Position numbers and translations under genes: made by a program. The notes beneath the pieces are model-generated. The model was given only the letters and a program-made list of their open reading frames with translations, did not search any database and was not told the origin of the DNA. Below are positions 3,009 through 38,987 of a DNA stretch of 43,567 bases, piece by piece (the first letter of the stretch is position 1; each line of letters begins with the position of its first letter). The stretch lies in the sequence record PP975109.1; one strand, given 5' to 3'. The stretch is from Escherichia phage IK_ECO1.

Positions 3009-3590
3009 ATGTGGTGGATGGTCGCCGCTATGGCTGCCAAAACTGTGCTGGGTGCTGGCGCACAGGTTGAGGTTGCCAAAGCACGTAACAAAGCAGTAAT
3101 TCAGCAGACAGCGAAGCAGTTAAATGACATTGCGCTGCAACGTGCTCAGTCCAGGGATCGGACTGAGGTTGCCCTGTTCAACGTTCAACAGCAGAAGCTG
3201 CAAGCACAGAGTCAGGTAGGCCTGCAAGCTGCTGCGTCTGGTACTATGGGGGCGTCTGTTAAGGATGCAGTAGCAACCGTGAATACAGTAGCAGATCGTC
3301 AGGTATCTGGAATCAGGTCCCAGCAGGCCACTCAGGAAGAGGGCTACCGAATGATGGTGGATAAGGCCGTGGATAGCGGATTAGCCAATATGGACCTGGA
3401 GAGCGGATACGACAAGATGTTTAATGCCGCCTTGGGCTTTGGTGGGCAGCTGCTCGGGCAATACATAGGGAATGAACTATCCAAGAGCACTCCCGATAGT
3501 ACCGATACCACCCCGGGGCCCGCAGCAGATAATTCGTTCTTGTATGACCTATGGGGCAGCAAGGGTAATAGCAAAGTACACACCTGGTAA
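3009..3590 (+). CDS. Internal virion protein (193 aa), hydrophobic N-terminus
   Basis: ATG at 3009 with RBS ggagga, start abutting upstream stop; position between tail tubular B and large internal proteins. Confidence 0.4.
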   Translation: MWWMVAAMAAKTVLGAGAQVEVAKARNKAVIQQTAKQLNDIALQRAQSRDRTEVALFNVQQQKLQAQSQVGLQAAASGTMGASVKDAVATVNTVADRQVSGIRSQQATQEEGYRMMVDKAVDSGLANMDLESGYDKMFNAALGFGGQLLGQYIGNELSKSTPDSTDTTPGPAADNSFLYDLWGSKGNSKVHTW

Positions 3591-3605
3591 ACTAAGGGGA
3601 AGTAA

Positions 3606-6290
3606 ATGCCTGTAATTCAACCCAACCGACAGGGTCTAAATATCGGCGGCGTGCAATTGCAGGCCAACGAGATTAACTTACCCTCTACCGTAGGGGATGT
3701 AGTAGTAGACACGTCCAAAGCAAACCGCCTTGCAGCACTCTCTGGCTTCGTCCAGGACTTCGGTATAGGGTTTGATGCAGCAGTAAAAGAAAATGCAGCA
3801 GCAGCCACTGTGCGAGGTGCTATGGATGCCCAGGGTGCAGTAGATGCAATGGCCTCTAAAGATGAGGCAGTACAGAAGCAGAATCTATTTGTACGAGAAG
3901 CCTACCAGGATGGTTATGTATCTGCTGCGGCCTACGATTCTCTAGCTAAGTGGCGTACGGATAGTATTACTCGCGCTAAGAAGGCAGCTGAGGCCGGACT
4001 GACTGATGAGGAATTCCACCAGCAGGAGCAAGAGCATGTTCAAGCTATGTCTGACAAGCTCGGTATGTATCTTCCGGATATGTCCAAACAGTCCGCTACG
4101 GCGGTACTGCAACAGCTCCGTGCAACCAGCTTAGCTAACTACACGGCCTTCCAGAAAGGTCGCGCAGAGTTTGCAGTAGCACAAGCAGACCGTGCGCTGG
4201 ACCGTGGGCTCAGCTCCTCCGTTGATGAGTTCTATCAGCGCCTGGATGCTGGGCAGGGTGCTGCTGCACAGATGTCAATTAAGACAGGACTAGACAGTAT
4301 ACTAGCGGCTGAACACTTGGATAAATCCAAGAAGTTGGACCGAGCCAAGCAGTATCTGGTCAGTGTAGCGCAGCAGACCCAGGACCCTCTAATCATCAAC
4401 CAGTTGCAGGAAATGGCAACTAAAGAGCTTGGTGTTAACTCTGTAGACGTTAATGCTGCCTTGTATCAGGAATTTAAGCGTGCTGGGACTCAGATTGAGA
4501 CTCAGGCTCGCTTTGAAATCTCAGATGCAATTCAGTCTCTGGAGGGGCAGTCCCCAGAAGAGCAGGAGCAGACGATGCAGCGTATCCGCAACCGCGTGAT
4601 TGAGCTATCTGCTACGGATGTACTAAGCCCCGGCACCAGTATGGAATTCTGGAACAAGGCTCAGACTATCAGGGAGAAGACTGCCGATACACAGGCTTTA
4701 CGTAGTGCCCTCACAGGAAACCTTCCTACATCCACCTTAGCTGGTATGTTTAAAGGGGATCTGGATAAGGCCCGGTCACAGGTACTCAAAAACTTCCCAG
4801 ACACTCCAGAGGGGAACTTGCAGCTACTGGCTTATGGTAGCAATAGTAAAGATGCGTGGGCCATCAATGAAGCACACAAGCGCATGTCCTCGGATATGGC
4901 GCGCACCCTCACTACACTGGACCAGTTAGGTGAGGATGGGCAGGTGTCCAAGGAGAATGTCAATAGCATCAACCTGTGGGCCCAAGCATATAGTACCAGT
5001 ACCGACTTAGGTAAGATGGCTCTGCTGTCTGAAGTCCCATCTGAGTGGCAGGGGGTGGTTCAGAAGGCCATTGCACAGAACCCCAATAACGCTAGCAACA
5101 CTATTCTGGACGATCTGCGTCGCCAGGCCCGTAACAAGGCTAACGGGCGCTACAGCAACATCAGTAGCAACCCCACAGACAAAATGGTGGATCCGAGTCA
5201 CACTGCTAATTGGTTCAGCTTCTTCGGCACAGCTGACGCACAGCGCCAGGAAGCGCGCGCCGCTATGGAGGAAGAGTATCGGTACGTATACAACCACAAC
5301 CCAGAGGCGTTAGTTGGTAAGGATCCCGATGATATCAACACGATGCTCAAAGGTAACATCCAAGCCCGTAAGCTGGAGTTAGATATCTCTGGGGCTCCTC
5401 GGCACGTGTACCTGCCAGCTGGGACTTCTATTCAATCCCTAATGGGGGATTATCGAGGAGACCAGGAGCAGTTCAAGTCGTCTCTGCAGCAACAGATTCA
5501 GAACCAGGTCAACGCCTTAATCGACCCAAGCAACCTTGAGCGCGTAGTAGTGCAGGCTGCTACAGCAGGCAACTCAGCACAGAATATGACTGTCACCGTA
5601 TTCGACAAGAAGGGTACCTTTCAGACTATGTCTGTGAATCTACAGGATGTTCAATCTACTGCTCAGGATGCTTACAACAAGGCGCTGGCTGGTGAGATGA
5701 AGATTGGCAGCGAGCAAGTTGGTATCCGCCCAGCTACTTTCTACGATCATGACAACGGCAGAGCTGTAAGTGTTCAGGTCAATGGTCGTAATGGGGCTGG
5801 TGTAGAACCTTCTTTATTTAGTGAGATTCTCGCCAATACCATGCAGTTTGAAGGGTTCCGGGAAGGTAAGGGTAACGGCAGTGTAGGTTTTGGTCTGCAC
5901 AACAACTCCGGTATGCCTGTTCCGAAGAAGGTTACTATCGACGATGGTATCAGCATTCTGAAATCCTCTCTGGAGCAGCAATATATCCCGAACGTGAACA
6001 AGCAACTGCGCGGGCAGGGTCTAAGTGCTTCTGCGGATGCTATGAAGGTCATGGTTGACTTGAACTATCATGGTGGCAACGGGAGTTCTGGCCCTGTAGC
6101 AGAGGCCGTGGCACAGGTACGTAAGGCATCTAAGACCCCTGTAGGGGCTTACCAGTATCCTGTATCGGAGGCCCAAGGTAAGGCTTGGCAAGCACTGCGC
6201 AATACCCCAGCTTACAAGCAGGCACAGCCTAAACGTAAGAAATATCTGGAGCAAGGACTGCGTAACTGGATGTTTGAGGTAACACACTAA
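3606..6290 (+). CDS. Internal virion/core protein (gp15-like), 894 aa
   Basis: Long ORF with RBS aagggga; position in internal virion protein block; followed by hairpin at 6294. Confidence 0.45.
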   Translation: MPVIQPNRQGLNIGGVQLQANEINLPSTVGDVVVDTSKANRLAALSGFVQDFGIGFDAAVKENAAAATVRGAMDAQGAVDAMASKDEAVQKQNLFVREAYQDGYVSAAAYDSLAKWRTDSITRAKKAAEAGLTDEEFHQQEQEHVQAMSDKLGMYLPDMSKQSATAVLQQLRATSLANYTAFQKGRAEFAVAQADRALDRGLSSSVDEFYQRLDAGQGAAAQMSIKTGLDSILAAEHLDKSKKLDRAKQYLVSVAQQTQDPLIINQLQEMATKELGVNSVDVNAALYQEFKRAGTQIETQARFEISDAIQSLEGQSPEEQEQTMQRIRNRVIELSATDVLSPGTSMEFWNKAQTIREKTADTQALRSALTGNLPTSTLAGMFKGDLDKARSQVLKNFPDTPEGNLQLLAYGSNSKDAWAINEAHKRMSSDMARTLTTLDQLGEDGQVSKENVNSINLWAQAYSTSTDLGKMALLSEVPSEWQGVVQKAIAQNPNNASNTILDDLRRQARNKANGRYSNISSNPTDKMVDPSHTANWFSFFGTADAQRQEARAAMEEEYRYVYNHNPEALVGKDPDDINTMLKGNIQARKLELDISGAPRHVYLPAGTSIQSLMGDYRGDQEQFKSSLQQQIQNQVNALIDPSNLERVVVQAATAGNSAQNMTVTVFDKKGTFQTMSVNLQDVQSTAQDAYNKALAGEMKIGSEQVGIRPATFYDHDNGRAVSVQVNGRNGAGVEPSLFSEILANTMQFEGFREGKGNGSVGFGLHNNSGMPVPKKVTIDDGISILKSSLEQQYIPNVNKQLRGQGLSASADAMKVMVDLNYHGGNGSSGPVAEAVAQVRKASKTPVGAYQYPVSEAQGKAWQALRNTPAYKQAQPKRKKYLEQGLRNWMFEVTH

Positions 6291-6339: not shown

Positions 6340-9300
6340 ATGGCTCAGTTTCTGAACCGAGAACCGAATCCACAGGAAAAGGATTCTGCTAAGGGCGCAA
6401 CACTTAAACCTGCGCCTACAAGCGTAGATTGGAATGACGCAGGAGATGATGGGCTGAATGCCCTACAGCGTTCATCTATACTGGCCCAGGCTAAAACCCC
6501 TGCGACGTCAGCAGGGGAGAGCTTTGCTGCTGGGGTTGGTAACAGCATTATAGCTGCAGCCATTAGAAAGGCCTCCTCCCCAACATTCGTCCCAGAGCAG
6601 GGGTTTGATGCTAAGAAACAACTAAGCACCGACTCCCGAGCTAAGCTCTACACCCCTAATCAGGAAGAGATTGATTACTTGCACGGGGCGGTGTCCCTGG
6701 ATGATTATAATTATCGCATTCAGGCTATGCTAGAACAGCGTGACCGTGACCGTCAGATGTCTGATAACACGGTAGCCGGGTTCACCGGTGCACTGGCTGG
6801 TGATGCTCCGTTTATACTGGCTCCGATGTCAGCGGCGGGTATCGCTGGTCGTGCTGGCTTAGCAGTGCGTACTGCTATCCGCGCAGCGGATGTAGGTACA
6901 GCTGTCTATGCACAAGATCAATTGGGACAGTCTGCGGCAGTCACTGCTCTGGTAGCAGGGGTAGCTGGACTAGACCAGCTCTGGGACATGTCTAAGGCTG
7001 CTAAAGTAGCAGCAAAGGCACGCACTGGGCGTGAGCCTATGTTTGACCCGGACGCGCCCACAACTCGTACAGCAAGGGATGCTAATGTTACAGGAGTAGG
7101 AGAAGGGGACACAATACTCACTAAGGTACTGGATGAACCTATCCAAGTTCGCCGGAATAACACTGCTGCTGTTAACATGAAAGCGCAGGACGTAGTCCGT
7201 TTCCTCAAGACCTCTGAACACTTATCTAAAGGTCAGAAGGCTATCCTGGACACCCTGGGTGATGCAGTACAGGATATTGATTTTAAACTGGTGGCTGGTT
7301 CTTCTAACCGTAGCCACTATGGATTTTCACCAGCATCAACCACTGATAGGGGTTTTGTATCTTTACGTGCCCCTAAGAAAGCTAACGGAAGTACCTGGAC
7401 TACTGCTAGGGACGCTCTGCGTGCTATGGATGCGGACACTAGCCGAGTAGCAGTGCACGAGCTGATTCACGCGGCCACCACCAGAGCCATCAAGCAGAAT
7501 CCTGAAATTGCGAGTAAGCTGGAAGAGGTGCGCGCTGCAATAGCATCAGATTCAACTCTTAGTGATAAATTCAAGTATTATGCAAGCGATGTGCACGAGA
7601 TGCTGGCTGGACTGGGAGACAGCCCTGAGTGGGTAGAGTACCTCTCTAGGACTAAATCCCCTACTGGTAAGAGTATGCTTCGCCAGATTGGTGAGTATAT
7701 CATGAATGCGCTTGGGGTCCGTACCAAGGGCTCCGCGCTGGAGGATGTTCTGGACGCGTACGAGGACGCTGTCAAGTGGACCGCAAAGGACTACGCAGAC
7801 CAAGCTCAGGGCTTCCGGAGTGAGTCCTTCCAGGACTTGGCGGATACATCGGTTAAGCATGAGGCCTTGAAAGCTCAGGCTATGATGGACACTGCTAAGC
7901 GTAAGCTCGCCACTATGTTCTCCTTGTATGATAACATCGCAGAAGGTAGTGAGGACCTAGCACGCTTATTAGTATCTGATGCTACTGCTGTAGGAGGTCG
8001 TAAGCCGTCTGTGGTGGACTTCAAGCGTAATCTTACGTTGGAGATGGACGCTAGTGCCAGTGTAGTTGAGGATGCTATACTAGGTGCCCTCAAGGCCAAA
8101 GGTGTAGGTTTCACGGACCGCTTCTTCCATCGTAGCAACTTCCGAGCAGCTCGCGCGGACTTAGAAGACCGCTTAGGCCGTTACCTGGACTCTGCATACA
8201 GTGCTGAGGTTAATGGGCGTCCTGTACCTCTGCCGGACTCCGACTTGGTTCCGCTCGTTGAGGCGTATCGCAACTCTGGTTGGGCTAGTAAGTGGCACGA
8301 CCACATGACCGCTGCCGGTTTAGTGGATGACGGTACTCTGGTTAAATCGGACTACTACTTCCCACGCCAGTATAGCTACGATAAGATGCGCCAAGGTATT
8401 GCAAATGGTCGCTCCCTGGATAATTATCGGGATCTGTTCCGTCAGGCATTACGTGACGTGTATCCATCTATGGAACCTGAGGTCGTTCAACGTGTTGCTA
8501 AGGAGATGGTTGATGGTATCTACAACGGACGCTCCTCGGCCTCTGGTCCTATGTGGAAGCAACTCATCAATGGTATGGGTAATGATGAAGTGGTTATGGC
8601 CATGCGTAATGCTGGCGTAGACGAGAGTGCAATCCAGAGTTTCTTGGCAGGTAATGTCCGAGAATCTGGCGCTACCTCGCCTGCTCGGAACCTGCGTCAA
8701 CGTACCCGCTTCAACATGGATAAAGAGTACATCGTGGATGGTCAGGCTATGCGTATGCAGGACCTGATGGACACTGACGTAGCCAAGGTAATGCACGGTT
8801 ACACCAACCGCATGTCTGGTCGTGTAGGTATGGCCTATGCTGGTGTCTCTGACCTCAAGACTCTAGAGACGATGATTAACGAGTCCAAACACGCCCTAGC
8901 CGATTCGGGTAAGTGGGAGAAGACTGTTAATGATACCATTGACTTTATCCTGGGTGGGGCCCCGGCCGATGCCGGGCAGATGCCGGACCTGTTGCGTGCA
9001 GCGGGGAATATGGCTAACGCTACCATGCTCAAGAACTCTGGATTGTACCAGCTTACTGACACCGCTCTGGCTCTGAAAGAGTTCGGTATGTCCCGAGTAC
9101 TCCGCAGTATGCGTGAGCAGCCCTGGTTTAAAGAGGGTGCCGTAGCTATTCGTAATCCGGACATGGCTAGTCGCCTGGATACAATCCTACGTGGCAGTAT
9201 CCAGAAGGAGATGCGCTTCCGCTGGCTGAATACCTACGCAGACGATAACTTGGACCTGACCCGTCAGGCTTCCTGGTTTAACGTCACGCAGAACGTTGGG

Positions 9301-10038
9301 CAGGCCGCTAGGCATGTTAACGGTATGAGCATGGTGCACAGACTGCAGGTTAACTTGAACTCCGGGATTGTTGCTGATGAACTCAAGCAGATGTTCAAAG
9401 GTGATGCAGAGGCATTCAAACGCCTGGAGCGCTTCGGGCTTACCCGTGATGTTGCAGACCGTGCTATTGCTGCCAATAAGGCTAACCCTGGCGCTATGTT
9501 CCAGCCGGACCTGCAAATGCAAATTGAGGTGGTAGGTACCAGAATGATGGACTACCTGGTGCAGCAAGTACGTACCGGTGAGACCTCACACTTCGCACAG
9601 TTTAACCCTATTGGTAAAGTAATCGTCGGCTACCAGAGCTTTGCCCTGGCTGCCACCAACAAGATTCTCCGCCGAGAGTTGAACGACGCTGGGTGGATTG
9701 GGGTTGCGCACATTATGGCGTACCAGTTCCCGTTGATGCTGCTCGCTACTATGGCGAAGCATGGTATGGATGGCAAAGAGGTAGACACCCAGAAGCTTAT
9801 TGCTGAGTCAGTTATGGGTATGAGTGCCATCGGTGGTATCTCGCTTCTACAGGACATCTTCACTGGGGATTCCCCACGTCACTCGTTGGCGTCTATGGGT
9901 TACGTCACTGGGCTGCTGGGTGCCGTGCAAGCCCTGGCTACTGGGGATATGGATATCCAGACCTTCACTAAGCAGGTCCCGTTAATCCAGGAATTCGCAC
10001 CTACGCGAGCTATCATCAATAACTTCGGAGACGATTAA
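6340..10038 (+). CDS. Internal virion protein D / ejection protein (gp16-like), 1232 aa; contains an HELIH (HExxH) motif
   Basis: Largest ORF, RBS aggaga; position before tail fiber as in T7 gp16; HExxH at approx nt 7456-7470. Confidence 0.5.
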   Translation: MAQFLNREPNPQEKDSAKGATLKPAPTSVDWNDAGDDGLNALQRSSILAQAKTPATSAGESFAAGVGNSIIAAAIRKASSPTFVPEQGFDAKKQLSTDSRAKLYTPNQEEIDYLHGAVSLDDYNYRIQAMLEQRDRDRQMSDNTVAGFTGALAGDAPFILAPMSAAGIAGRAGLAVRTAIRAADVGTAVYAQDQLGQSAAVTALVAGVAGLDQLWDMSKAAKVAAKARTGREPMFDPDAPTTRTARDANVTGVGEGDTILTKVLDEPIQVRRNNTAAVNMKAQDVVRFLKTSEHLSKGQKAILDTLGDAVQDIDFKLVAGSSNRSHYGFSPASTTDRGFVSLRAPKKANGSTWTTARDALRAMDADTSRVAVHELIHAATTRAIKQNPEIASKLEEVRAAIASDSTLSDKFKYYASDVHEMLAGLGDSPEWVEYLSRTKSPTGKSMLRQIGEYIMNALGVRTKGSALEDVLDAYEDAVKWTAKDYADQAQGFRSESFQDLADTSVKHEALKAQAMMDTAKRKLATMFSLYDNIAEGSEDLARLLVSDATAVGGRKPSVVDFKRNLTLEMDASASVVEDAILGALKAKGVGFTDRFFHRSNFRAARADLEDRLGRYLDSAYSAEVNGRPVPLPDSDLVPLVEAYRNSGWASKWHDHMTAAGLVDDGTLVKSDYYFPRQYSYDKMRQGIANGRSLDNYRDLFRQALRDVYPSMEPEVVQRVAKEMVDGIYNGRSSASGPMWKQLINGMGNDEVVMAMRNAGVDESAIQSFLAGNVRESGATSPARNLRQRTRFNMDKEYIVDGQAMRMQDLMDTDVAKVMHGYTNRMSGRVGMAYAGVSDLKTLETMINESKHALADSGKWEKTVNDTIDFILGGAPADAGQMPDLLRAAGNMANATMLKNSGLYQLTDTALALKEFGMSRVLRSMREQPWFKEGAVAIRNPDMASRLDTILRGSIQKEMRFRWLNTYADDNLDLTRQASWFNVTQNVGQAARHVNGMSMVHRLQVNLNSGIVADELKQMFKGDAEAFKRLERFGLTRDVADRAIAANKANPGAMFQPDLQMQIEVVGTRMMDYLVQQVRTGETSHFAQFNPIGKVIVGYQSFALAATNKILRRELNDAGWIGVAHIMAYQFPLMLLATMAKHGMDGKEVDTQKLIAESVMGMSAIGGISLLQDIFTGDSPRHSLASMGYVTGLLGAVQALATGDMDIQTFTKQVPLIQEFAPTRAIINNFGDD
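7085..7102 (+). promoter_or_regulatory. Copy of the repeated motif atgttacaggagtaggag, inside the gp16-like gene; candidate phage RNAP promoter
   Basis: Exact 17-18 nt identity with copies at 18310 and 38994. Confidence 0.35.
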
Positions 10039-10039
10039 T

Positions 10040-11548
10040 ATGGCATACAGCTGGCAAGAGCAAATCAAGCCAGCTGGTACCCAGGATATCCAGTGTGATA
10101 TTGAGTATTTGGACAAGTCCTATATTCATGTATATCTCGACGGCGTCGAAACCACTGGGTACACCTGGACCAGCTCTACAAATATTAGGCTGAACACAGC
10201 CTTGACAGCGGATACGACGGTACTGCTCATTCGCAAGACCGAGCGCGAGTATCTGTACATTGAGTTTGCTAGTGGTTCCCCATTCATCGAGGTGAACGTA
10301 GACTCTCAAAACACCCAGTTCTTACACTTAGCTCAAGAGCTGGTGGAGGGTAGGGCCATCCCCGGATTCTACGGGGATATAAGCATGAACGGCTTCCGCA
10401 TCACCAACTTAGGTACTGGGGTTAATCCGGGGGATGCCGTTAACAAGGGACAGCTTGACGTGGTAGATGCACGTGTAACCAGTCTGGAAGAGACGTGGGT
10501 AACGGCTGCTACCAGCTATCCTTGGTACACTACTACCACCACTGAAACCGACGTACTGGACCCGCCCTTTAACTTCACTAAGGCTGCTCTGTACATCACT
10601 GGTGTGTGCCAGACCCCAGGCTATAGCTACGTGGTAGTAGATAATCAGATTATGCTAGCGGACCCTGTACCTGCGGGTACGCACATCTTTGCCCGCCTAG
10701 GTGAGGATGTAGGTCTAGACCCTAACTATGCCACCGCAGACCAGCTAGCTGCTGCTATCAGTCAAGCGCAGCTTGAGCATAACGCGCTACAGGCGGGTAT
10801 CGATGGCAAAGCAGCTAAGGGTGCTAACTCTGATATCACGAGCTTGAGCGGGCTTATAACGCCTCTCAGCACAACTCAGGGTGGTACAGGTAGTACTACT
10901 GGAGTAGCACCTAAAGCTACTGTTCTTGAAACCTCTCGTACAGTACAAGTAAACCTAGCAACCACCACCGCAGCCAGTTTCGATGGTTCCGCCAACATCT
11001 CTCCAGGTGTAACAGGTACGCTACCTGTAGTCAACGGAGGTACAGGTGGTACTACCCCAGCGGGCGCTCGTGGTAATCTAGGGGCTGCTGCTAGCGGTTC
11101 TAACTCGGATATTACCGCACTCACCTCGTTGAGCGGCGGTATTACTGGCCTGACTACAGGTACTGCGGCTGCTCCGGGTATCGTAGGACAGGAGCTGTCT
11201 GCGTCGTCTGGTACGGCTGTATCCTTAACTTCTGGGACCCTGACCAACGTAGCAAGCATCAGCCTACCTGCTGGGGATTGGGAGCTAGAGAGTGCGTTGC
11301 GTGTAACTAACGCAGGCAACATCACGCTCCTGAACTTTGGGGTCAGTGCTACCTCAGCCACCCTGCCTACAGATTGGTGGGACCGTTACAACATCACTAC
11401 AACGCTGGCAGCAGGTACTTCTACTCGTCAGGGTATGTCTCGCAGGGTTCTGCTCAGCGCGACTACTACACTGTACCTAGTAGCGCAGGCTACCTTCACC
11501 AGTACCTGTACAGCAGACGGTTATATCAGAGCACGGAGGGTGCGTTAA
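10040..11548 (+). CDS. Tail fiber protein with T7 gp17-like N-terminal adaptor domain, 502 aa
   Basis: N-terminal region (…RITNLGTGVNPGDAVNKGQLD…) resembles T7-type fiber anchor; internal repeat GANSDITSLSG / GSNSDITALTSLSG; position before terminase. Confidence 0.6.
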   Translation: MAYSWQEQIKPAGTQDIQCDIEYLDKSYIHVYLDGVETTGYTWTSSTNIRLNTALTADTTVLLIRKTEREYLYIEFASGSPFIEVNVDSQNTQFLHLAQELVEGRAIPGFYGDISMNGFRITNLGTGVNPGDAVNKGQLDVVDARVTSLEETWVTAATSYPWYTTTTTETDVLDPPFNFTKAALYITGVCQTPGYSYVVVDNQIMLADPVPAGTHIFARLGEDVGLDPNYATADQLAAAISQAQLEHNALQAGIDGKAAKGANSDITSLSGLITPLSTTQGGTGSTTGVAPKATVLETSRTVQVNLATTTAASFDGSANISPGVTGTLPVVNGGTGGTTPAGARGNLGAAASGSNSDITALTSLSGGITGLTTGTAAAPGIVGQELSASSGTAVSLTSGTLTNVASISLPAGDWELESALRVTNAGNITLLNFGVSATSATLPTDWWDRYNITTTLAAGTSTRQGMSRRVLLSATTTLYLVAQATFTSTCTADGYIRARRVR

Positions 11549-18781: not shown

Positions 18782-18810
18782 TTGACACCGCGAAGAACAT
18801 AAGCTAGATT
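18782..18810 (+). promoter_or_regulatory. Candidate host sigma70 early promoter: TTGACA - 17 nt - TAGATT
   Basis: Perfect -35 hexamer, 17-nt spacer, -10 with TAnnnT; upstream of early genes on the coding strand. Confidence 0.45.
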
Positions 18811-21138: not shown

Positions 21139-21483
21139 ATGCTTACAGTAGACGAAACAGCGCTACTGTGTTGGCGCTTGCTAGAGACGCAGGGCAAGTG
21201 CGGTTGCAGTTGGGAAACATTCAAAGAGGTCCCTAATGAACTCAAAGGAATCGTACCAGTTGAGCGTCGATTACTCCACGTTAGAAAAGAAGGTGTTGGC
21301 ACTGTACTCAAAACCTATCGAGAGTACACTGAATCAGCCGCGCGGAGACTTCAGGAGCATATCTCATTTAATGTGGTTGCGGCGCTACGGCAGTATGGAT
21401 ATAGGGGAGCTTATACGCAATTTAGAGCAGCAGTGCGCGCCTATTACAAGCAGCGACAGCTCTCTGCGTGGTATGCACGCTGA
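21139..21483 (+). CDS. Early hypothetical protein, 114 aa
   Basis: ATG 21139 with RBS aagga, directly after upstream stop; track ORF 21049-21483 same frame with earlier start. Confidence 0.45.
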   Translation: MLTVDETALLCWRLLETQGKCGCSWETFKEVPNELKGIVPVERRLLHVRKEGVGTVLKTYREYTESAARRLQEHISFNVVAALRQYGYRGAYTQFRAAVRAYYKQRQLSAWYAR

Positions 21484-21529
21484 ACTTTTAATTCATGATG
21501 AAATAGCATTAACACTGGAGACAAAGAAA

Positions 21530-23251
21530 ATGCAAACGACTCGCGAGATGCAAGAAACTAGCAAAGCAGTTGCAGACATCAATGTGCCTGAATACGAGAA
21601 TTGGACCATCAAATTTCCAGAAGGGGTCAACGCTCTTCCACTGAAGGAACAGATGTACTCTTCCGGGGATTACTGGTGCCAACTTCCCTACCTATCAACT
21701 CAAGGCCATGCGCGCGTGCAAAGTAACAAAACCCGTGCGCTTTTGTATGGCTTTTATATGTTGTCAAAGGTGCTGCCGGGGTATGTTGTAGCACTCGGCA
21801 ACTTCACAGCTGCAGGAGAGGACTTGGGTGGGTGTGTTGGGCCGCTGGGCACGATTGATCTTAGTGACACTCTCCTGTATAAGCTCTTTGACTGTGCAGG
21901 TACCTACGACCAAGCATTCAGTTTATCTAGCAGAACCTTCTATGATGGCCCTGACGTAGTTACAGAACGCGTAGTAGAGGCGGTCCAATACTTTACCGGA
22001 TACAAGGTGCACAAGCAGGCTATCGAGCTGTTCGAAGAGATTATGCTAGCACCTACTTACTCCCTTCGGGCCAAATACACTCGCGGCTTGTACGGTGAGC
22101 GTGATGGTAATTACTGGGCAGCAACCTTGCTTATGCAGTTGCACGGATTTGTAGTATCTAGATTTGCAATCCCACTAGGTTTCGGCTTCCGCAACGGTGA
22201 GCCTGTAGTAATGCTGGGGCAGCCGCGACTGCACAAAGATTATGCTGCAATTACAGAGTATCGCTGTGTAGAGATGCGCGTAGGTAAGTGGCTCGCTAAC
22301 TATTACGGCAGTGGTGTAGACTTCCGGGAATGTATTGAAGACCTCAAAGCTATGAACGTGGAGCCTACTACATATCTTTGTAAGACCGAGCGGGAGTGGT
22401 ACTACGCATACGAGAACGGCCCTCGTAGCTGCATGACTGGATACGACTTCGAGGCTAGTCCGGTGCGTGTATATGCCACGACTAGTCACGGCTTGCCGGA
22501 CAATAATCTGCGCCTGTTCATCCAGTATACTGGTGAACTTTTTGGCGACGACTTTAAAGTGCATGCCCGTGCTATCGTTAACATTGAAACCAATGAATAT
22601 GTCCGTGCATACGGGGATGCTGCAGATGCCATCCTGCGTGCTAATGGGTATGCGAACGATACAGACTGCTTAGATGGTGCAATGCTGGCGCGTATCCCAC
22701 ACCCAGAGCATGATGGTGCCGTGCTTATGCCGTACTTGGATGGGAGCCAAGACGGGGTGGATGCCGAAGGGGATAGTGCATTCGTCATCTGTTATTGCTA
22801 TGACTACGAAGCACAAGACGCTGACGGGTACATTTGGATTGATGATGGTCGCAGTGCTTGTGTAGAGTGCGGGGAGCGATTCGACGAAGAGGACATGTTC
22901 GAGACTTCTGGTGGAGCTTATGTGTGCCCGCACTGTATTGGTGATACTTACGTACAGGTAGTAGGGCGCTCGGTGGTATATCCGTCATGGGATTGTTCAT
23001 GGTCCGACTACCACGATTGTTGGGTATATGACTTTGACGTAGCAGATTGTGCTGTAGAGGGTACAGTGCACGACCGAGAGCCGATGCAGTGTGCGCAAGG
23101 GTACGATGTTCTTAGCATCCACACCGAAGCACACCCAGTGCACGGCATAATCCTCACGGAGTACGCTGCGTCAGTGCTGGATGAGCCTTACCTCGGCAAC
23201 GAGGAAGCTAAAGAAGACAAAGAAGCTAACGCGGAACAGGAGGCAGCTTAA
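21530..23251 (+). CDS. Large early protein of unknown function, about 573 aa, Cys-rich zinc-ribbon-like C-terminal region and acidic tail
   Basis: ATG 21530 with RBS ggaga 9 nt upstream; track ORF 21236-23251 has an earlier in-frame start overlapping the previous gene; CxxC…CxxC (CVECGERF…CPHCIG) near C-terminus. Confidence 0.5.
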   Translation: MQTTREMQETSKAVADINVPEYENWTIKFPEGVNALPLKEQMYSSGDYWCQLPYLSTQGHARVQSNKTRALLYGFYMLSKVLPGYVVALGNFTAAGEDLGGCVGPLGTIDLSDTLLYKLFDCAGTYDQAFSLSSRTFYDGPDVVTERVVEAVQYFTGYKVHKQAIELFEEIMLAPTYSLRAKYTRGLYGERDGNYWAATLLMQLHGFVVSRFAIPLGFGFRNGEPVVMLGQPRLHKDYAAITEYRCVEMRVGKWLANYYGSGVDFRECIEDLKAMNVEPTTYLCKTEREWYYAYENGPRSCMTGYDFEASPVRVYATTSHGLPDNNLRLFIQYTGELFGDDFKVHARAIVNIETNEYVRAYGDAADAILRANGYANDTDCLDGAMLARIPHPEHDGAVLMPYLDGSQDGVDAEGDSAFVICYCYDYEAQDADGYIWIDDGRSACVECGERFDEEDMFETSGGAYVCPHCIGDTYVQVVGRSVVYPSWDCSWSDYHDCWVYDFDVADCAVEGTVHDREPMQCAQGYDVLSIHTEAHPVHGIILTEYAASVLDEPYLGNEEAKEDKEANAEQEAA

Positions 23252-24285
23252 TGTATGGTGTTGACCTTAAACTACTGACAAAGATACTAACAACGCACCG
23301 ACCTAGCTGGGGTAGTACCAAATGGTTTGAGCCTCTTCTTAGTGGTGCCCTTGCCAATGCAGAGCACTATGTAAGGGATGCGCACGGTAACTACTTTGTA
23401 CTAATTGGTAACTCTGAACAGAGCGACGTAGCGTTTACATCACACCTCGATACAGTGGCCCGGCCCGGTAGCGCTGCGCCGGACATTGCAATTACTAACA
23501 AGGGCGTAATGTTCCTGCGGAATCCACAGGTTGCGGACTGTCTCGGGGCAGACTGTGGTGCCGGTATCTACCTGATGCTGGAGATGATTAAGCGCGGTGT
23601 GCATGGACGTTACTGCTTCTTCGTGGATGAGGAAGTAGGTTGTGAGGGCAGCAGAGCATCAGCCAAGGACGATACTGGCTTCTGGACTGGGGTCAAGGCA
23701 ATGATTAGCTTTGACCGCCGGGGTGATGGTATCATCACGCATCAACGATACCAGCGTTGCTGTTCTGATACGTTCGCAAAAGAACTCGCGGCCCGGCTAG
23801 GGCGCACGGAAGCGCACTTACAGAAAGGAGTGTACACTGACTCTGCCGAGTTCATAAGTATTATCCCAGAGTGCACTAACGTAGGCGTAGGGTACATGCA
23901 TGAGCATACACCAGACGAGGTGTTGGACTTGAATATACTCGGACAAGTACTTGAGCGCGTACTACAAGCGGGTACGTTCAAGCACCTACCGATTGAGCGG
24001 GATCCTAAGGTAGTGGAGCCGGATGCGTGGTTGTCCGCCTCAGCGTACCCTTTTGTCACAGCGCTGGATATTCCCCCTGCAGAGGATCCGCATTTACTAG
24101 CAGCATTCAAGGAGGTGTCACAGCTTTCTAAGCAGCAACTGATTGGTTGGGTGTTGGATAACCCGGCAAGAGCGGCAGAGTACATCATGGTGTATTCTGA
24201 CTATGGATTTAAAGATGAGCTGATTGAACTAGGTACCCGAGTTGTAGAGGACTGGGGTGGGTATGATAATATTGTGGAGGGTTGA
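23251..24285 (+). CDS. Putative Zn-metallopeptidase-like protein (M20/M28/M42-type motif order), 344 aa
   Basis: Motif order H-x-D (SHLDTV), GADCGAG, DEEVGCEG, later HEH, as in aminopeptidase-type metal sites; read by eye, not searched. Confidence 0.35.
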   Translation: MYGVDLKLLTKILTTHRPSWGSTKWFEPLLSGALANAEHYVRDAHGNYFVLIGNSEQSDVAFTSHLDTVARPGSAAPDIAITNKGVMFLRNPQVADCLGADCGAGIYLMLEMIKRGVHGRYCFFVDEEVGCEGSRASAKDDTGFWTGVKAMISFDRRGDGIITHQRYQRCCSDTFAKELAARLGRTEAHLQKGVYTDSAEFISIIPECTNVGVGYMHEHTPDEVLDLNILGQVLERVLQAGTFKHLPIERDPKVVEPDAWLSASAYPFVTALDIPPAEDPHLLAAFKEVSQLSKQQLIGWVLDNPARAAEYIMVYSDYGFKDELIELGTRVVEDWGGYDNIVEG

Positions 24286-24287
24286 TT

Positions 24288-24746
24288 ATGTCTAAGTTTA
24301 AAGTTGGTGATAAGGTTGTACGCAAACATTATAAAGATGATGAGATATTTAAAAGCAGACAAGGGGATTGTATTTACTACACAATTACTGATATGTCCGA
24401 ACATGGCTACTGGCTGCAGTTGAATAACTTTTCCTACGATGGTGATCGCGTGCCGTGGTCTGCTGCCAACTTCGAGCTATATCAAGAGCCGGACGACGAG
24501 CTGCCACCGGTTCCGGACAGCGTCTACTATCCGGATATGTACACACTGTTAACGGGGTTACGTGCATGTGAAGGTACATCCGGGTTAACTGTGCGGAAAT
24601 CTCCATATACCTCGGGGGCTTTAAGCCTATCTATTGATGATAGTAAATGGACACGATTAGATGCGGATGCAGCCCTGCAGTTAGCGCATGACCTACGCCG
24701 CATGGCTATGGAGATTCGGAGGAAGGAGAAAGCTAGTGAAGTATGA
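24288..24746 (+). CDS. Hypothetical protein, 152 aa, N-terminal FKVGDKV barrel-like motif
   Basis: ATG 24288 with RBS ggaggg; N-terminus similar to the protein at 27422. Confidence 0.45.
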   Translation: MSKFKVGDKVVRKHYKDDEIFKSRQGDCIYYTITDMSEHGYWLQLNNFSYDGDRVPWSAANFELYQEPDDELPPVPDSVYYPDMYTLLTGLRACEGTSGLTVRKSPYTSGALSLSIDDSKWTRLDADAALQLAHDLRRMAMEIRRKEKASEV

Positions 24747-25197
24747 GTATAACCCGGATACCGGCGAGATACTCCGTTACGGAAAACCCGTGGGGTCTAA
24801 GGACTCCTCTGGGTATTTGGTGGTATGGGTAGATGGCAAGTGCTGGAGAGCACACCGTCTTGCTTACCATTTGCAAGGCCTGCCTGTACCCAAACAAGTG
24901 GACCACATAAACGGCATCCGAGACGATAACAGGTGGATTAATCTGCGAGCAGCCACTAACTCGCAGAACCAATACAATAGAAAACCCTGCTCTTCCTCAG
25001 GGAATTTGAAGGGTGCTTATTACAATAAAGCAATGCGTAGTTGGTATTCTTTAATCAGGGTAAATGGTAAACGTAAGTATCTAGGTTCCTTTACTTCTGA
25101 GGAAGCAGCTCACGCTGCCTATGTGGAAGCGGCACAGCAACTACATGAGGGTTTTGATATATGGACGAGCCGTGGCTTAGAGCCTGCAAGCGCCTAG
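24736..25197 (+). CDS. HNH homing endonuclease with AP2-type DNA-binding domain
   Basis: HRLAYH…VDHINGIRDDNRWINL…SQNQ (HNH) followed by GAYYNKAMRSWYSLIRVNGKRKYLGSFTSEEAAHAAY (AP2-like); GTG 24736 likely start, or ATG 24688. Confidence 0.7.
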   Translation: MKYEYNPDTGEILRYGKPVGSKDSSGYLVVWVDGKCWRAHRLAYHLQGLPVPKQVDHINGIRDDNRWINLRAATNSQNQYNRKPCSSSGNLKGAYYNKAMRSWYSLIRVNGKRKYLGSFTSEEAAHAAYVEAAQQLHEGFDIWTSRGLEPASA

Positions 25198-25949
25198 CTA
25201 TAGGGCAGTCCAGCAGGTTCAGGTGCTGCGGGAGCACTCCCGCGGCGATAATCTACAACAAGCAAGACGCCTGGAGTATGTACTGTTTCCGGTGTCACAA
25301 AACAGTTAATGAGCGCAAGCAGTATCAGCGCATACAGTTACAGGAAGAGCCGAGGGTGCAGCCCTCTGCACCTGCAGATGCAATTTGCATTAGCCAAGCG
25401 ACTGCAGAAACACAGAGTTTTATTTACGGATTCCTTGCTTCAAAAGGAATCATGCCTGAAATGGTGGAGGATGCAGAATGGAGCAACGAGAAACAGCGGA
25501 TACTATTCCGTGTCGGGGGTGCTGTACTGGGTCGTGCTGTTCATGCCCGACAGCAACCGAAGTGGGTAATGTACGGCCAGCCAATACCGTTCGCTGCCGT
25601 GGGACCTGCCGTAGCACCGGATGTAGCTGCGGCCGCACCTCTAAAGGTCGTGCTCACCGAGGACTTACTCTCAGCCCGGAAGATACAGCACGCAGTTACG
25701 AGCTACAGTGCGTTGAACGTGCAGGCTATAGCTATGCTGGGTACACGCTTGCCCACGCCGCTAAGGGCCTGGCTGATTCAGAATCGCCCGGAAGCGATTC
25801 TGATGCTAGACAATGACCCGGCAGGGCACGCTGGGGTAGCGGCGGCGCGCAAAGCACTGCGCCCGTTCATGCAGTGCCGAGAACACTACTTCGCTGCGGA
25901 CCCTAAGGACGCAGAAATCAAGGAGATACTGGAGGCTTTGGATGTTTAA
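25161..25949 (+). CDS. DNA primase (zinc-binding N-terminus plus TOPRIM), 262 aa
   Basis: Cys cluster CCGS…CFRCH; TOPRIM-like LTEDLLSA and LMLDNDPAGHAG motifs; precedes helicase. Confidence 0.6.
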   Translation: MDEPWLRACKRLAIGQSSRFRCCGSTPAAIIYNKQDAWSMYCFRCHKTVNERKQYQRIQLQEEPRVQPSAPADAICISQATAETQSFIYGFLASKGIMPEMVEDAEWSNEKQRILFRVGGAVLGRAVHARQQPKWVMYGQPIPFAAVGPAVAPDVAAAAPLKVVLTEDLLSARKIQHAVTSYSALNVQAIAMLGTRLPTPLRAWLIQNRPEAILMLDNDPAGHAGVAAARKALRPFMQCREHYFAADPKDAEIKEILEALDV

Positions 25950-36518: not shown

Positions 36519-38987
36519 ATGATTAGCGCCCTGAATACGGTTGTAGTACCAGAGGAAGCACTGGTGGAACGCCAGTTGGAGCTTGAAGAGACCTACAAGA
36601 TTCGCGGCATTGAACGTGCTCGCAAATTGATTACCGATGCTCTACAAAACGGCGGGATTATGAACCTGCCTATGACTCAGCGCATGCTAACCTCTGCGTA
36701 CGACGTGGCCTCTGCAGCCATTGAGGAAATGCGTAATGTCAAAGCCCCGGGTATCGGTGGAAAGTACCGCCGATTCCTACGCTTAGTCCCCTTGGATGTC
36801 CTAACTACTCTGAGCCTGTGCACAATGTTTGAGGCGTTCAGTGTTGCCCCTGGTGAGTCCGCCAGTCGCCGCCAGACAGCTCAGGCAGTGATGTCCGCTC
36901 TGGGTAGGAATGTACAGTCAGAGCTGCTGGCCCTACAACTACGTAATGTTGCTCCAGCGTATATGGACCGGGTATATGAATACCTCACTGAGCGCCGTAC
37001 TAAGTCACCTACGCACATTCTGCGTACGCTCCGCGCCAGTGCTGAGAACGTGCACTATGGGCATGAGCCTTGGACCAACGCTCATAATATTTCTGTGGGA
37101 CGTCTGCTGTGTTCCGCAGTGTTTGAGACGGGGCTGTTCCAGTGGAAGACTGGTAGCGGGAACTTGAGTATGCTCTATCCCGCAGATAATGTTATGGAAG
37201 CATTTCAGCAGTTAGTGGAATCTGCTGACACTGTAACTATGAAGCCTCCGATGCTGGTACCGCCGGTGCAACATACTACACTGTGGGATGGTGGATACCT
37301 CACCCCAATCGATAACCGTGGGACGTACCACAACTCACACATTGACCGCGCCAGACTGCGTGAAGTAGCGGAAGCATTTAAGTCTGCGGACGGTATCAAG
37401 AAGGCACTTAATAAGGCGCAGGAAACCCCTTATCGCATTAATAAGCGAATACTGGAACTGGTACAAGAAGCACGGGCCTTAGGTATTGGTGTAGGTATGC
37501 CGCGCTCAGTGCCAGAGCCGAAACCTGAGTGGTACTTAGATGGTGTACCAAAAGAGAATTACACCGAGGAGGAACTCGACCGCTTCGGAGAGTGGAAGAC
37601 GCGCATGTCCTTATGGTACAGCGCCGACCGTAAACGTGTGTCGCAACTACGTAGTCTATTGACCACGCTAGAGATGGCAGAGGAATTCAAAGATGAGAAA
37701 GCCCTATACTTCCCAACCTGTGTGGATTGGCGGTACCGGCTGTACTTCAAGTCCTCACTGCACCCCCAAGGTTCTGATTTGCAGAAGGCACTTCTTGAAT
37801 TCGGACGAGGTAAACCTCTGGGAGAGAGAGGGTTATTCTGGCTTAAAGTGCACGTCGCTACCTGTTTTGGTTATGACAAAACCCTATTCGAAGACCGTGC
37901 AGCTTGGGTTGATGCAAACTTTGCAGAGATTGAGCAGCTCGCGGATTCTCCTTTTGATTGCCCTGCTTTTACCTCCGCCGACAGCCCTTGGTGCTTCCTG
38001 GCAGCCGCTATCGACTTGGTTAATGCTGTACGTTCTGGATGCCCAGAAGAGTATATTAGCCGAATCCCAGTTGCTATGGATGCTACAAACTCAGGTGGTC
38101 AGCACCTCTCAGCGCTCCTGAGAGACCCTGTAGGCGGGCGTCTGACTAACCTGTACTGGGAGGGTAACGACAAGAAAGCGGACCTGTATATGGACGTGAA
38201 GCGCCGTACGGACGAGAAGGTGATACTGGACCTGGACAAAGAGGATTTCGTTATCCAGAGCACGTACTGGAGAGAGAACGAAATCACTCGAAGCATGACC
38301 AAGCGTCCTAGCATGACCTACTTCTACAGCGCCACGGTGCGCAGCTGCAGCGACTACATCTTTGCAGGGGCCTGTGAAGAGGGGTATGAAGGAACAGACA
38401 CGCACAGTCTCTGGAACCTTTCCTGCTACCTTGCCCCTAGGATGCGTAGCGCTATCGAGGAAGCTAACCCGGCAGCAGCAGCAGCTATGGGGTATCTGCA
38501 GAACCTCGCTAGGCGTGTACCTGCTAGTCAGCACCTGCAGTGGAAGACCCCGCTAGGGGGGCTGGTGATGAACCGGTACTCTCAACGAGAGGAGGTGCGT
38601 GTACGTATTGACTGCATGAACTTGTCTGCCGTGCTGGTGCACAACCGTGACTTTAAGACCTGTAATAAGCGCAAGGCCGCCTCTGGTATTGCCCCGAACT
38701 TTGTACATAGCCTGGATAGCACACACCTCATGATGGTGCTCTGTGCTGCAGAAGGTATAGATATTATACCTATTCACGATTCGATGGCTACTCACGCATC
38801 TGACGTTGATGCTCTGCACCGCCATATCCGTGAACAGTTTGTGAAGCTGTACGAGGAGCATGATCTTCTGGGGGATATTACCCGAGCAGCTGCTGAAGCG
38901 GGGGCAGATCTTACAGACCTGGAGATGCCTGCAATAGGTACTTTGGACATCCGACAAGTACTGGAATCACCCTTCTTCTTCTCATAA
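36519..38987 (+). CDS. DNA-directed RNA polymerase, single-subunit T7-type, 822 aa
   Basis: Catalytic-region motifs AMDATNSGGQHLSALL (T7 DGSCSGIQHFSAML equivalent) and IPIHDSMATHASD (T7 HDSFGT equivalent); size. Confidence 0.9.
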   Translation: MISALNTVVVPEEALVERQLELEETYKIRGIERARKLITDALQNGGIMNLPMTQRMLTSAYDVASAAIEEMRNVKAPGIGGKYRRFLRLVPLDVLTTLSLCTMFEAFSVAPGESASRRQTAQAVMSALGRNVQSELLALQLRNVAPAYMDRVYEYLTERRTKSPTHILRTLRASAENVHYGHEPWTNAHNISVGRLLCSAVFETGLFQWKTGSGNLSMLYPADNVMEAFQQLVESADTVTMKPPMLVPPVQHTTLWDGGYLTPIDNRGTYHNSHIDRARLREVAEAFKSADGIKKALNKAQETPYRINKRILELVQEARALGIGVGMPRSVPEPKPEWYLDGVPKENYTEEELDRFGEWKTRMSLWYSADRKRVSQLRSLLTTLEMAEEFKDEKALYFPTCVDWRYRLYFKSSLHPQGSDLQKALLEFGRGKPLGERGLFWLKVHVATCFGYDKTLFEDRAAWVDANFAEIEQLADSPFDCPAFTSADSPWCFLAAAIDLVNAVRSGCPEEYISRIPVAMDATNSGGQHLSALLRDPVGGRLTNLYWEGNDKKADLYMDVKRRTDEKVILDLDKEDFVIQSTYWRENEITRSMTKRPSMTYFYSATVRSCSDYIFAGACEEGYEGTDTHSLWNLSCYLAPRMRSAIEEANPAAAAAMGYLQNLARRVPASQHLQWKTPLGGLVMNRYSQREEVRVRIDCMNLSAVLVHNRDFKTCNKRKAASGIAPNFVHSLDSTHLMMVLCAAEGIDIIPIHDSMATHASDVDALHRHIREQFVKLYEEHDLLGDITRAAAEAGADLTDLEMPAIGTLDIRQVLESPFFFS

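Follow-up and report, generated by a model that had tools for sequence, protein, structure and literature searches.

The ORF at positions 23251..24285 (+) of the window, by which we mean the whole 43,567-nucleotide stretch of Escherichia phage IK_ECO1 DNA (PP975109.1), probably encodes a catalytically competent, single-domain hydrolase of clan MH with a co-catalytic di-zinc site, and would act as the downstream member of a two-gene module linked by translational coupling; we give this reading a probability of about 0.6. The ORF runs from ATG to TGA and specifies 344 aa, with exactly the limits given in the first-pass annotation. It comes second in a closely coupled gene pair, and the pairing is newly described here.

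The peptidase gene itself is already known. The genome is that of a circularly permuted KP34-like phage (Drulisvirus), and the protein is 98.5% identical in amino acids to the 'peptidase' of phage PSK2 and 78–92% identical to its counterparts in Klebsiella Drulisviruses. The orthologue in KP34, gp11, has been called a 'putative peptidase' since 2011, the label 'peptidase' is attached to this gene in more than 100 GenBank records, and the gene belongs to the core of several Autographiviridae genera, including that of the KP34-like genus and of the PhiM1-like phages. The remark in the first-pass annotation that a peptidase would be unusual in a T7-like phage is therefore overstated, as the gene is not unusual for the KP34-like lineage. 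A metallopeptidase-like call alone re-derives the existing annotation and adds little. The family is nevertheless among the larger phage enzyme families of unassigned function, with thousands of clusters at 50% identity (2,580 representatives at this level with E <= 1e-30), and in the therapeutic Klebsiella and E. coli Drulisviruses it is a core gene with a strictly conserved active site. Its coupling to an uncharacterised partner turns it into a concrete, testable two-protein system.

Active site and predicted fold

The first-pass annotation had compared the motif order H-x-D, GADCGAG, DEEVG and a late His with the metal-binding signature of M20/M28/M42 aminopeptidases, and the ORF contains all four in that order. 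The HxD motif, H65-L-D67 (23443..23451, +), is kept in 52 of 52 homologues and aligns with SHMDTV of the structures 3gb0 and 3rza; H65 is the predicted first metal ligand. The predicted bridging ligand, the invariant D101 (23551..23553, +), lies within G99-A-D-C-G-A-G105 (23545..23565, +), which aligns with LGADDKAG of the PepT-like 3gb0. In D126-E-E-V-G130 (23626..23640, +), which aligns with GEESG of 3gb0, both glutamates are invariant; E127 is predicted to act as general base and E128 to bind metal. The late His corresponds to H219 in GYMHEHTPDE (23905..23907, +), the predicted fifth ligand, which aligns with the His of GYEEIH in 3gb0. H219 is invariant in the homologue alignment, whereas the neighbouring H217 is not conserved.

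The predicted fourth ligand is D155 in ISFDRRG (23713..23715, +), 27 residues after E128, an assignment made by spacing; D155 and the adjacent R156 are both invariant. This ligand was missing from the motif list of the first-pass annotation.

The ligand order of clan MH, His, Asp (bridging), Glu, Asp/Glu and His, is matched by H65, D101, E128, D155 and H219, and the EE and HxD features of the clan (E127-E128 and H65-L-D67) are both invariant in the family. Four of the five predicted ligands sit in motifs that align with equivalent motifs of PepT-type structures, and in HMMER alignments to two of these (3gb0 and 3rza) HxD, GAD, EE and the late His coincide. Seven residues (H65, D67, D101, E127, E128, D155 and H219) are conserved without exception in 52 homologues, down to about 33% identity, and also in a smaller set of 25. 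Both sets share further, family-specific invariants, namely R156, Q165, T196, D197, C208, N210 and E223.

Profile searches returned significant matches to peptidase families, as the first-pass annotation had proposed to check. PHROG 4191 ("peptidase") aligned over nearly its full length (E = 2.8e-143; residues 4–343 against profile positions 3–342 of 342). The match to Pfam PF04389 (Peptidase_M28) was marginal and partial (23.3 bits, gathering score 21.3; E = 6e-5; profile positions 8–128 of 193), and a precomputed PF04389 match is present in a minority of homologues. Pfam M42 (PF05343) stayed below its cut-off (12.5 against 23.2 bits), and the sole NCBIfam match, the PepT-like TIGR01883, was sub-threshold at 16.9 against 274. 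No PADLOC defence model matched. Literature searches on phage M28-type peptidases, Drulisvirus transcriptomes and virion proteomics that include the peptidase yielded annotation tables and one proteomics supplement only, and we found no functional study of the family.

Structure prediction, also proposed earlier, gave an AlphaFold2 model with a mean pLDDT of 80.7 and a confident core. The predicted catalytic alpha/beta domain comprises residues 1–255 (23251..24015, +), mostly at pLDDT 80–97, and in Foldseek searches against the PDB it resembled PepT (E = 1.9e-10), M42 TET peptidases (about 1e-9, TM about 0.5) and the catalytic domain of DapE. There were 184 PDB matches at E <= 0.001, and the best 50 listed were all M20, M42 or related clan-MH proteins with a probability of 1.00. 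The model core and these matches point to an alpha/beta aminopeptidase fold. The protein appears to be single-domain because the interval from H65 to D101 is only 36 residues long, a short beta-hairpin, and that from D155 to H219 only 64, made up of core elements. Residues 256–344 (24016..24282, +) form a C-terminal linker and helical extension modelled at low confidence (pLDDT 35–76). This tail is lineage-variable and differs between paired and unpaired forms in the homologue comparison; it is a candidate for the region touching the partner.

The metallopeptidase-like (M20/M28/M42) reading thus holds up in PHROG 4191, Pfam M28 and AlphaFold/Foldseek alike, and sequence and model together support a zinc-dependent, peptidase-type enzyme. 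Placement at the family level within clan MH is ambiguous; the clan includes deacylases besides peptidases.

The upstream partner and its pairing with the peptidase gene

Directly 5' of the peptidase gene lies the gene of a 671-aa protein (21236..23251, +), a member of PHROG 6980 and the orthologue of KP34 gp10. Its TAA stop overlaps the ATG of the peptidase in the sequence TAATG (23249..23253), and a Shine–Dalgarno motif, AGGAGG (23238..23243, +), lies within its 3' end, 7 nt 5' of that ATG. On the other side, a 152-aa ORF (24288..24746, +; PHROG 4317) follows the peptidase gene; it was rejected as a third member of the module, being conserved in close relatives only.

With a partner HMM, homologues of the partner were detected at 33 of 51 diverse viral loci and at 57 of 80 loci in bacterial genomes, one of the latter beside an integrase; in both sets they nearly always lie directly 5' of the peptidase gene. 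The directly 5' arrangement, with gaps of -1 to +22 nt, recurs in KP34-like phages, VP93, Peat1, Peggy and many IMG/VR contigs, and the pairing spans hosts among Enterobacteria, Sphingomonads, Flavobacteria, Planctomycetes and Coriobacteriia. Across distant paired loci the proteins are only about 17–40% identical and the remaining gene order is not conserved. About one-third of the family, mostly longer forms on jumbo-phage contigs, together with the member from Thermus phage P23-45, has no detectable partner, and the enzyme can therefore function without it. No partner–peptidase fusion was seen, and the long peptidases that lack a partner carry no extension resembling it.

The partner has a conserved core at residues 375–535 (22358..22840, +), with the invariant residues S398-C399-M400, R445, Y459 and P499-Y-x-D502. 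This core, which carries the motifs SCM, R, YG and PYxD, was modelled at pLDDT 80–93 with the predicted element order b1-a1-a2-b2-b3-b4-a3-b5. Such an order is compatible with GNAT topology, and a GNAT-like fold, of an acyl- or aminoacyl-transferase, is possible on the basis of the model. Y459, at the end of the predicted b4, is invariant and the Gly that follows is variable. The GNAT sequence signature (Pfam or the CoA-binding motif Q/RxxGxG/A) was not found in the partner, and acetyltransferase Pfam models gave nothing at E <= 1–10 with 15 full-length and 20 core-only members. Foldseek comparison with the PDB returned nothing significant, and sequence searches of Pfam and the PDB, with the full length or the core only, found no match beyond generic zinc-ribbon/LIM noise. 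Downstream of the core, residues 542–572 (22859..22951, +) form a CxxC...CxxC element resembling a zinc ribbon, with a sub-threshold Zn_ribbon_8 match (E = 0.022), weak LIM-domain matches and a nearly invariant C542.

Proposed activity and timing

The phage enzyme would most likely be an exopeptidase of aminopeptidase type or a closely related N-acyl/peptide amidohydrolase. We infer that it acts jointly with its partner on one substrate: the partner may provide substrate recognition or acyl/aminoacyl transfer, and the zinc enzyme would carry out the hydrolytic step. The targets might be N-termini of host or phage proteins, or a small N-acylated amine.

Alternatively, the enzyme could be no peptidase but a deacylase like DapE, ArgE or the aminoacylases. 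Its substrate would then be a small metabolite with an N-acyl group, for example a signalling molecule or an intermediate of a cell-wall or amino-acid pathway, and not a peptide or protein. Existing labels lean this way: DapE (4H2K) is the best match of the orthologue g13 of phage fHe-Kpn01 in the HHpred-type annotation of others, the Peat1 gene carries the note 'acetylornithine deacetylase', and one nr record reads 'Succinyl-diaminopimelate desuccinylase'. The DapE catalytic domain 4h2k also gave the best target-normalised TM-score (0.63), and a GNAT-like partner would suit acyl-group chemistry. We nonetheless consider a deacylase unlikely, as the 64 residues from D155 to H219 leave no M20 lid, and DapE without its lid domain (construct 4H2K) is catalytically inactive (PMC4012986). 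The PepT-like NCBIfam score, far under its cut-off, likewise speaks against it.

An ambitious version of the joint-action proposal is that the two genes form a widespread but unrecognised two-enzyme module, in which a GNAT-like acyl- or aminoacyl-transferase with zinc ribbons and an M28-like di-zinc exopeptidase remodel N-termini or an amine target at the onset of infection, possibly after delivery in the particle. Such a module might create or erase N-degrons, or inactivate a host factor or defence protein. We regard this version as quite doubtful. Should the two proteins indeed alter or trim host proteins early in infection, this would be a new way of taking over the host or countering its defences, in phages now under development as therapeutics.

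In the genome, the pair is found about 5.5 kb from the left end, after small early genes and just before the primase, helicase and polymerase genes. Going by gene position only, it is presumably made by the host RNA polymerase before the onset of replication. A promoter and terminator scan of 17–27 kb gave counts at or below the shuffled expectation and is silent on transcription units.

The adjacency of the two genes would be mere synteny, without functional coupling, if the enzyme were a stand-alone general aminopeptidase that enlarges amino-acid pools from host peptides. The overlapping or abutting stop and start persist across diverse hosts at about 17–40% identity, where other gene order is lost, and without selection for co-expression this is difficult to account for. 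Moreover, the hosts already encode several broad aminopeptidases, and the pair takes up about 3 kb, or 7% of a 43-kb genome. A stand-alone role thus seems improbable, even though M28/M42 relatives are broad-specificity aminopeptidases and the partner is missing in about one-third of the family.

In the Drulisvirus fHe-Kpn01, g12 (partner), g13 (peptidase) and g14 were found by LC-MS/MS in gradient-purified particles, in which the primase, helicase and polymerase were not detected (PMC7291057 Table S2). A large complex sedimenting together with the particles, or material carried over from the lysate, could account for their presence. That the peptidase is a virion-delivered or structural protein (scaffold or injected) whose fold is catalytically irrelevant, as the recovery of the orthologue and its two neighbours in particles might suggest, is very improbable, since the conservation of seven catalytic and ligand residues in 52 of 52 homologues points to catalysis, the gene is located in the early/replication region, distant from the structural module, and as many as 29 of 56 fHe-Kpn01 gene products were called particle-associated, including a metallophosphoesterase (PMC7291057), which suggests carry-over.

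Comparison with known enzymes

The KP34 gp11 orthologues of PSK2, Klebsiella phage Hope, Shigella phage SFN6B and Escherichia phage Minorna keep the length and position of the gene, between a large hypothetical gene and the primase gene as here, and show no substantive difference. For the homologue in Cronobacter phage Peggy, the database record cites HHpred homology to 3CPX.

Judged from sequence and model, the phage enzyme comes closest to M28 in architecture, having neither the lid domain of M20 nor the PDZ-like domain of M42. With the M28 aminopeptidases of Aeromonas/Vibrio proteolyticus and Streptomyces griseus it shares a single catalytic alpha/beta domain with a predicted co-catalytic di-zinc site. 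The spacing agrees as well with the M28 pattern (ligands H, D, E, D, H; the catalytic Glu before the ligand Glu; an Asp 27 residues after EE). Unlike these enzymes, the phage protein is cytoplasmic, without a signal peptide, is coupled to a partner gene, and adds a C-terminal helical region and the invariants R156, Q165, T196-D197, C208-T-N210 and E223.

M20 enzymes (PepT, DapE, ArgE and carboxypeptidase G2) gave the best PDB sequence and Foldseek matches, with an alignable catalytic domain and motifs, but nothing between the fourth and fifth ligands of the phage protein corresponds to their lid/dimerisation domain. Classical DapE/ArgE membership was rejected on this ground. The partner, or the C-terminal helices of the peptidase, might replace a lid in trans. 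The M42 TET peptidases (PhTET1–3, TmPep1050 and FrvX/YpdE) have a similar catalytic domain; their PDZ-like dimerisation domain, inserted after HxD and before the bridging Asp, is absent from the phage protein.

For the partner, Rac, an acetyltransferase of the GNAT type made early by phiKMV-like phages, offers an analogy only, that of a GNAT-type protein from a related podophage group tied to the proteolysis of a host protein. Rac triggers cleavage of the alpha subunit of host RNA polymerase via unidentified host proteases (PMC7552054). It is a canonical GNAT of small size, and its gene lies downstream of that for the phage RNA polymerase, whereas the partner has 450–700 aa, occupies another locus and lacks the GNAT signature; Rac was rejected as a homologue on all three counts. 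The Rac system relies on host proteases, while the phage that encodes the partner carries a metallohydrolase of its own.

The peptidase gene and its predicted fold

The window carries the complete genome of a KP34-like podophage (Autographiviridae, Slopekvirinae, Drulisvirus) in circularly permuted form. When it is aligned to complete linear records, the alignments begin or break off near 17.8 kb (junction 17.78-17.86 kb), which places the physical left end there. Structural and lysis genes occupy 1-17.6 kb, and an RNAP-sized ORF is found at 36519..38987. The peptidase gene (23251..24285, + strand) runs from ATG to TGA and encodes 344 aa. It follows a series of small ORFs at some 5.5 kb from the left end, shortly ahead of the genes for primase, helicase and DNA polymerase. 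A strong AGGAGG ribosome-binding site can be read in the sequence 7 nt 5' of its ATG. Because promoter and terminator scans of the early region were uninformative, with a promoter count not above the shuffled expectation, it is gene position that points to early expression. The top sigma-70-like match of this region, TTGACA-17-TAGATT (18782..18810, + strand, 10/12), is about 1 kb from the inferred left end. Downstream, an HNH homing endonuclease ORF (24688..25197, + strand; Pfam HNH_3, with a sub-threshold AP2 match) overlaps both neighbours, a small ORF (24288..24746) and the primase gene (25161..25949). It looks like a mobile insertion, since phage Minorna has a 68-aa ORF in its place.

The first-pass annotation proposed a zinc metallopeptidase resembling M20, M28 and M42 enzymes from the order of its motifs, all of which were found in that order: H65-L-D67, G99-A-D-C-G-A-G105, D126-E-E-V-G130 and the late histidine H219 (GYMHEHTPDE). 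D155 (ISFDRRG), absent from that list, occupies the position expected of the fourth ligand of a di-zinc site. H65, D67, D101, E127, E128, D155 and H219 were invariant in a 25-sequence alignment reaching down to 32% identity, and again in 52 sequences from diverse viral contigs. Of the two late-motif histidines, H219 is conserved and H217 is not, so that H219 is the predicted ligand. R156, Q165, T196, D197, C208, N210 and E223 are also invariant and are specific to this peptidase family.

The zinc peptidase-type gene is thus confirmed, and both profile searches and structure prediction support the metallopeptidase-like reading, placing the protein in the peptidase family at the level of clan MH. 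It matched PHROG 4191 ("peptidase") over its full length (E = 2.8e-143) and narrowly exceeded the Pfam M28 gathering score with a partial match (23.3 versus 21.3 bits); the cut-offs of Pfam M42 and the NCBIfam PepT-like profile were not reached. The top PDB sequence matches were two PepT-type M20 proteins, in which the HxD, GAD, EE and late-His elements line up with identical enzyme motifs. An AlphaFold2 model built from the 25-sequence alignment (mean pLDDT 80.7; residues 1-255 mostly 80-97) gave 184 Foldseek matches in the PDB at E ≤ 0.001, the best 50 of which were all M20, M42 or related clan MH hydrolases. They were led by PepT (1.9e-10), M42 TET aminopeptidases (~1e-9) and the isolated DapE catalytic domain (TMt 0.63). 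Only 36 residues separate H65 from D101 and only 64 separate D155 from H219, so that neither the PDZ-like insert of M42 enzymes nor the lid/dimerisation domain of M20 enzymes is present. Architecturally, the phage protein is an M28-like enzyme of one domain, to which a helical region is added at the C-terminus (residues 256-344, poorly modelled).

Distribution and prior annotation

The gene was already known as an annotation. The first-pass annotation considered an early peptidase unusual in a T7-like phage, a view that does not hold in this branch, where the KP34 ortholog has been labelled "putative peptidase" since 2011 and a published listing includes it among the core genes of the KP34-like genus. 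In PhiM1-like phages, it is the sole conserved early gene with a functional assignment. The "peptidase" of Escherichia phage PSK2 shares 95% DNA and 98.5% protein identity with the window gene, which also has counterparts in Vibrio phage VP93, Pectobacterium phage Peat1 and Cronobacter phage Peggy. Full-length megablast matches were retrieved from 119 phage records and protein-level matches from 387, while an exhaustive profile search returned 8,248 cluster representatives at E ≤ 0.001 (2,580 at E ≤ 1e-30). A literature search for functional work on the peptidase found no study. Beyond the existing annotation, our analysis contributes a conserved two-gene module and a tentative fold for the second protein.

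A conserved partner gene

The partner is a 671-aa ORF (21236..23251, + strand; PHROG 6980, without a Pfam family) whose TAA stop overlaps the peptidase ATG (TAATG). We searched 78 viral and 80 bacterial-genome loci carrying peptidase homologues by tblastn and with a partner HMM. The partner was found in all 31 KP34-like loci, 33 of the 51 diverse viral loci and 57 of the 80 bacterial-genome loci, with hosts spanning Enterobacteria, Vibrio, Sphingomonads, Rhizobiales, Flavobacteria, Planctomycetes, Nitrospira, Coriobacteriia and Saccharibacteria. In nearly all of them it immediately precedes the peptidase gene in the same orientation, at distances of -1, -8, -13 or +2 to +22 nt. A few loci differ: two viral (L044, L052) and two bacterial-genome loci (L101, L103) have the partner immediately 3', and in one viral locus (L083) it lies upstream but on the other strand. 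In Peat1 and Peggy, the protein encoded upstream of the peptidase is a partner homologue (E = 6e-20 and 1.5e-40, respectively), and a 500-aa ORF placed likewise on an unrelated 73-kb phage contig has a 151-residue similarity to the window partner (E = 3e-6) that includes the paired CxxC motifs. No partner-peptidase fusion was found, and the partner is absent from Thermus phage P23-45. The small ORF at 24288..24746 was rejected as a module member, being confined to close relatives.

Two bacterial loci have particular arrangements. In Xanthobacter sp. (L128, 3436..8001), a 739-kb chromosomal contig has genes for a tyrosine integrase and a transcriptional regulator ~1 kb downstream of the pair, which suggests that the pair sits close to one end of an integrated prophage. 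Mesorhizobium sp. STM 4661 (L121) carries two pairs in tandem within 10 kb (3514..5906 and 7649..10371). Members without a detected partner are mostly longer forms (375-448 aa), many on 150-476 kb contigs. Longer forms of 364-440 aa on jumbo-phage-sized contigs keep all catalytic residues and differ in their C-terminal extension; no partner was detected in the 6-kb flanks of L038, L040, L047, L053, L064 and L067 (IMG/VR contigs of 150-476 kb) or the 8-kb flanks of L002 (201-kb contig). L038 and L067 are two peptidase copies on one contig.

The N-terminal half of the partner is lineage-specific. Its conserved core (residues ~375-535) contains invariant S398-C399-M400, R445, Y459 and P499-Y-x-D502, and is followed by CxxC...CxxC zinc-ribbon-like elements. 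Pfam and PDB sequence searches with full partners and with the core matched nothing beyond zinc-ribbon/LIM noise. The AlphaFold2 model, from 42 input sequences, has a low mean pLDDT of 57 but is confident at residues ~380-600 (80-93). Foldseek returned nothing significant, its weak top matches including the GNAT proteins PatZ and NuA3. A GNAT-like acyl or aminoacyl transferase is a lead rather than a finding, with roughly even odds.

Possible roles of the module

In glycerol-gradient-purified particles of Drulisvirus fHe-Kpn01, LC-MS/MS detected g12, g13 and g14 but not primase, helicase or polymerase; the top HHpred match of g13 was DapE 4H2K (PMC7291057 Table S2). These three products are orthologs of the partner, the peptidase and the small downstream protein (21236..24746), so both module proteins are made. 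Their detection also suggests that the two move together, either through packaging or within a large co-sedimenting complex. Carry-over is a real possibility, as 29 of 56 gene products were called particle-associated (PMC7291057).

The best-supported reading is that the peptidase would be an active di-zinc exopeptidase-type hydrolase, acting with the partner on a common substrate. A DapE/ArgE-type deacylase is weakened by the missing lid domain, since DapE constructs without it are inactive (PMC4012986), although in principle the role of the lid might be taken over in trans by the partner or by the C-terminal helices. The pairing, which persists across phyla at ~17-40% protein identity, fits poorly with a stand-alone "nutritional" aminopeptidase, and the perfectly conserved catalytic residues fit poorly with a purely structural role. 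For the hydrolase acting with its partner, a two-enzyme module remodelling protein N-termini is conceivable, if rather improbable. Rac, an early GNAT protein of phiKMV-like phages that causes the alpha subunit of the host RNA polymerase to be cleaved by unidentified proteases (PMC7552054), offers a useful analogy to the partner, but the two are not homologous by any test run.
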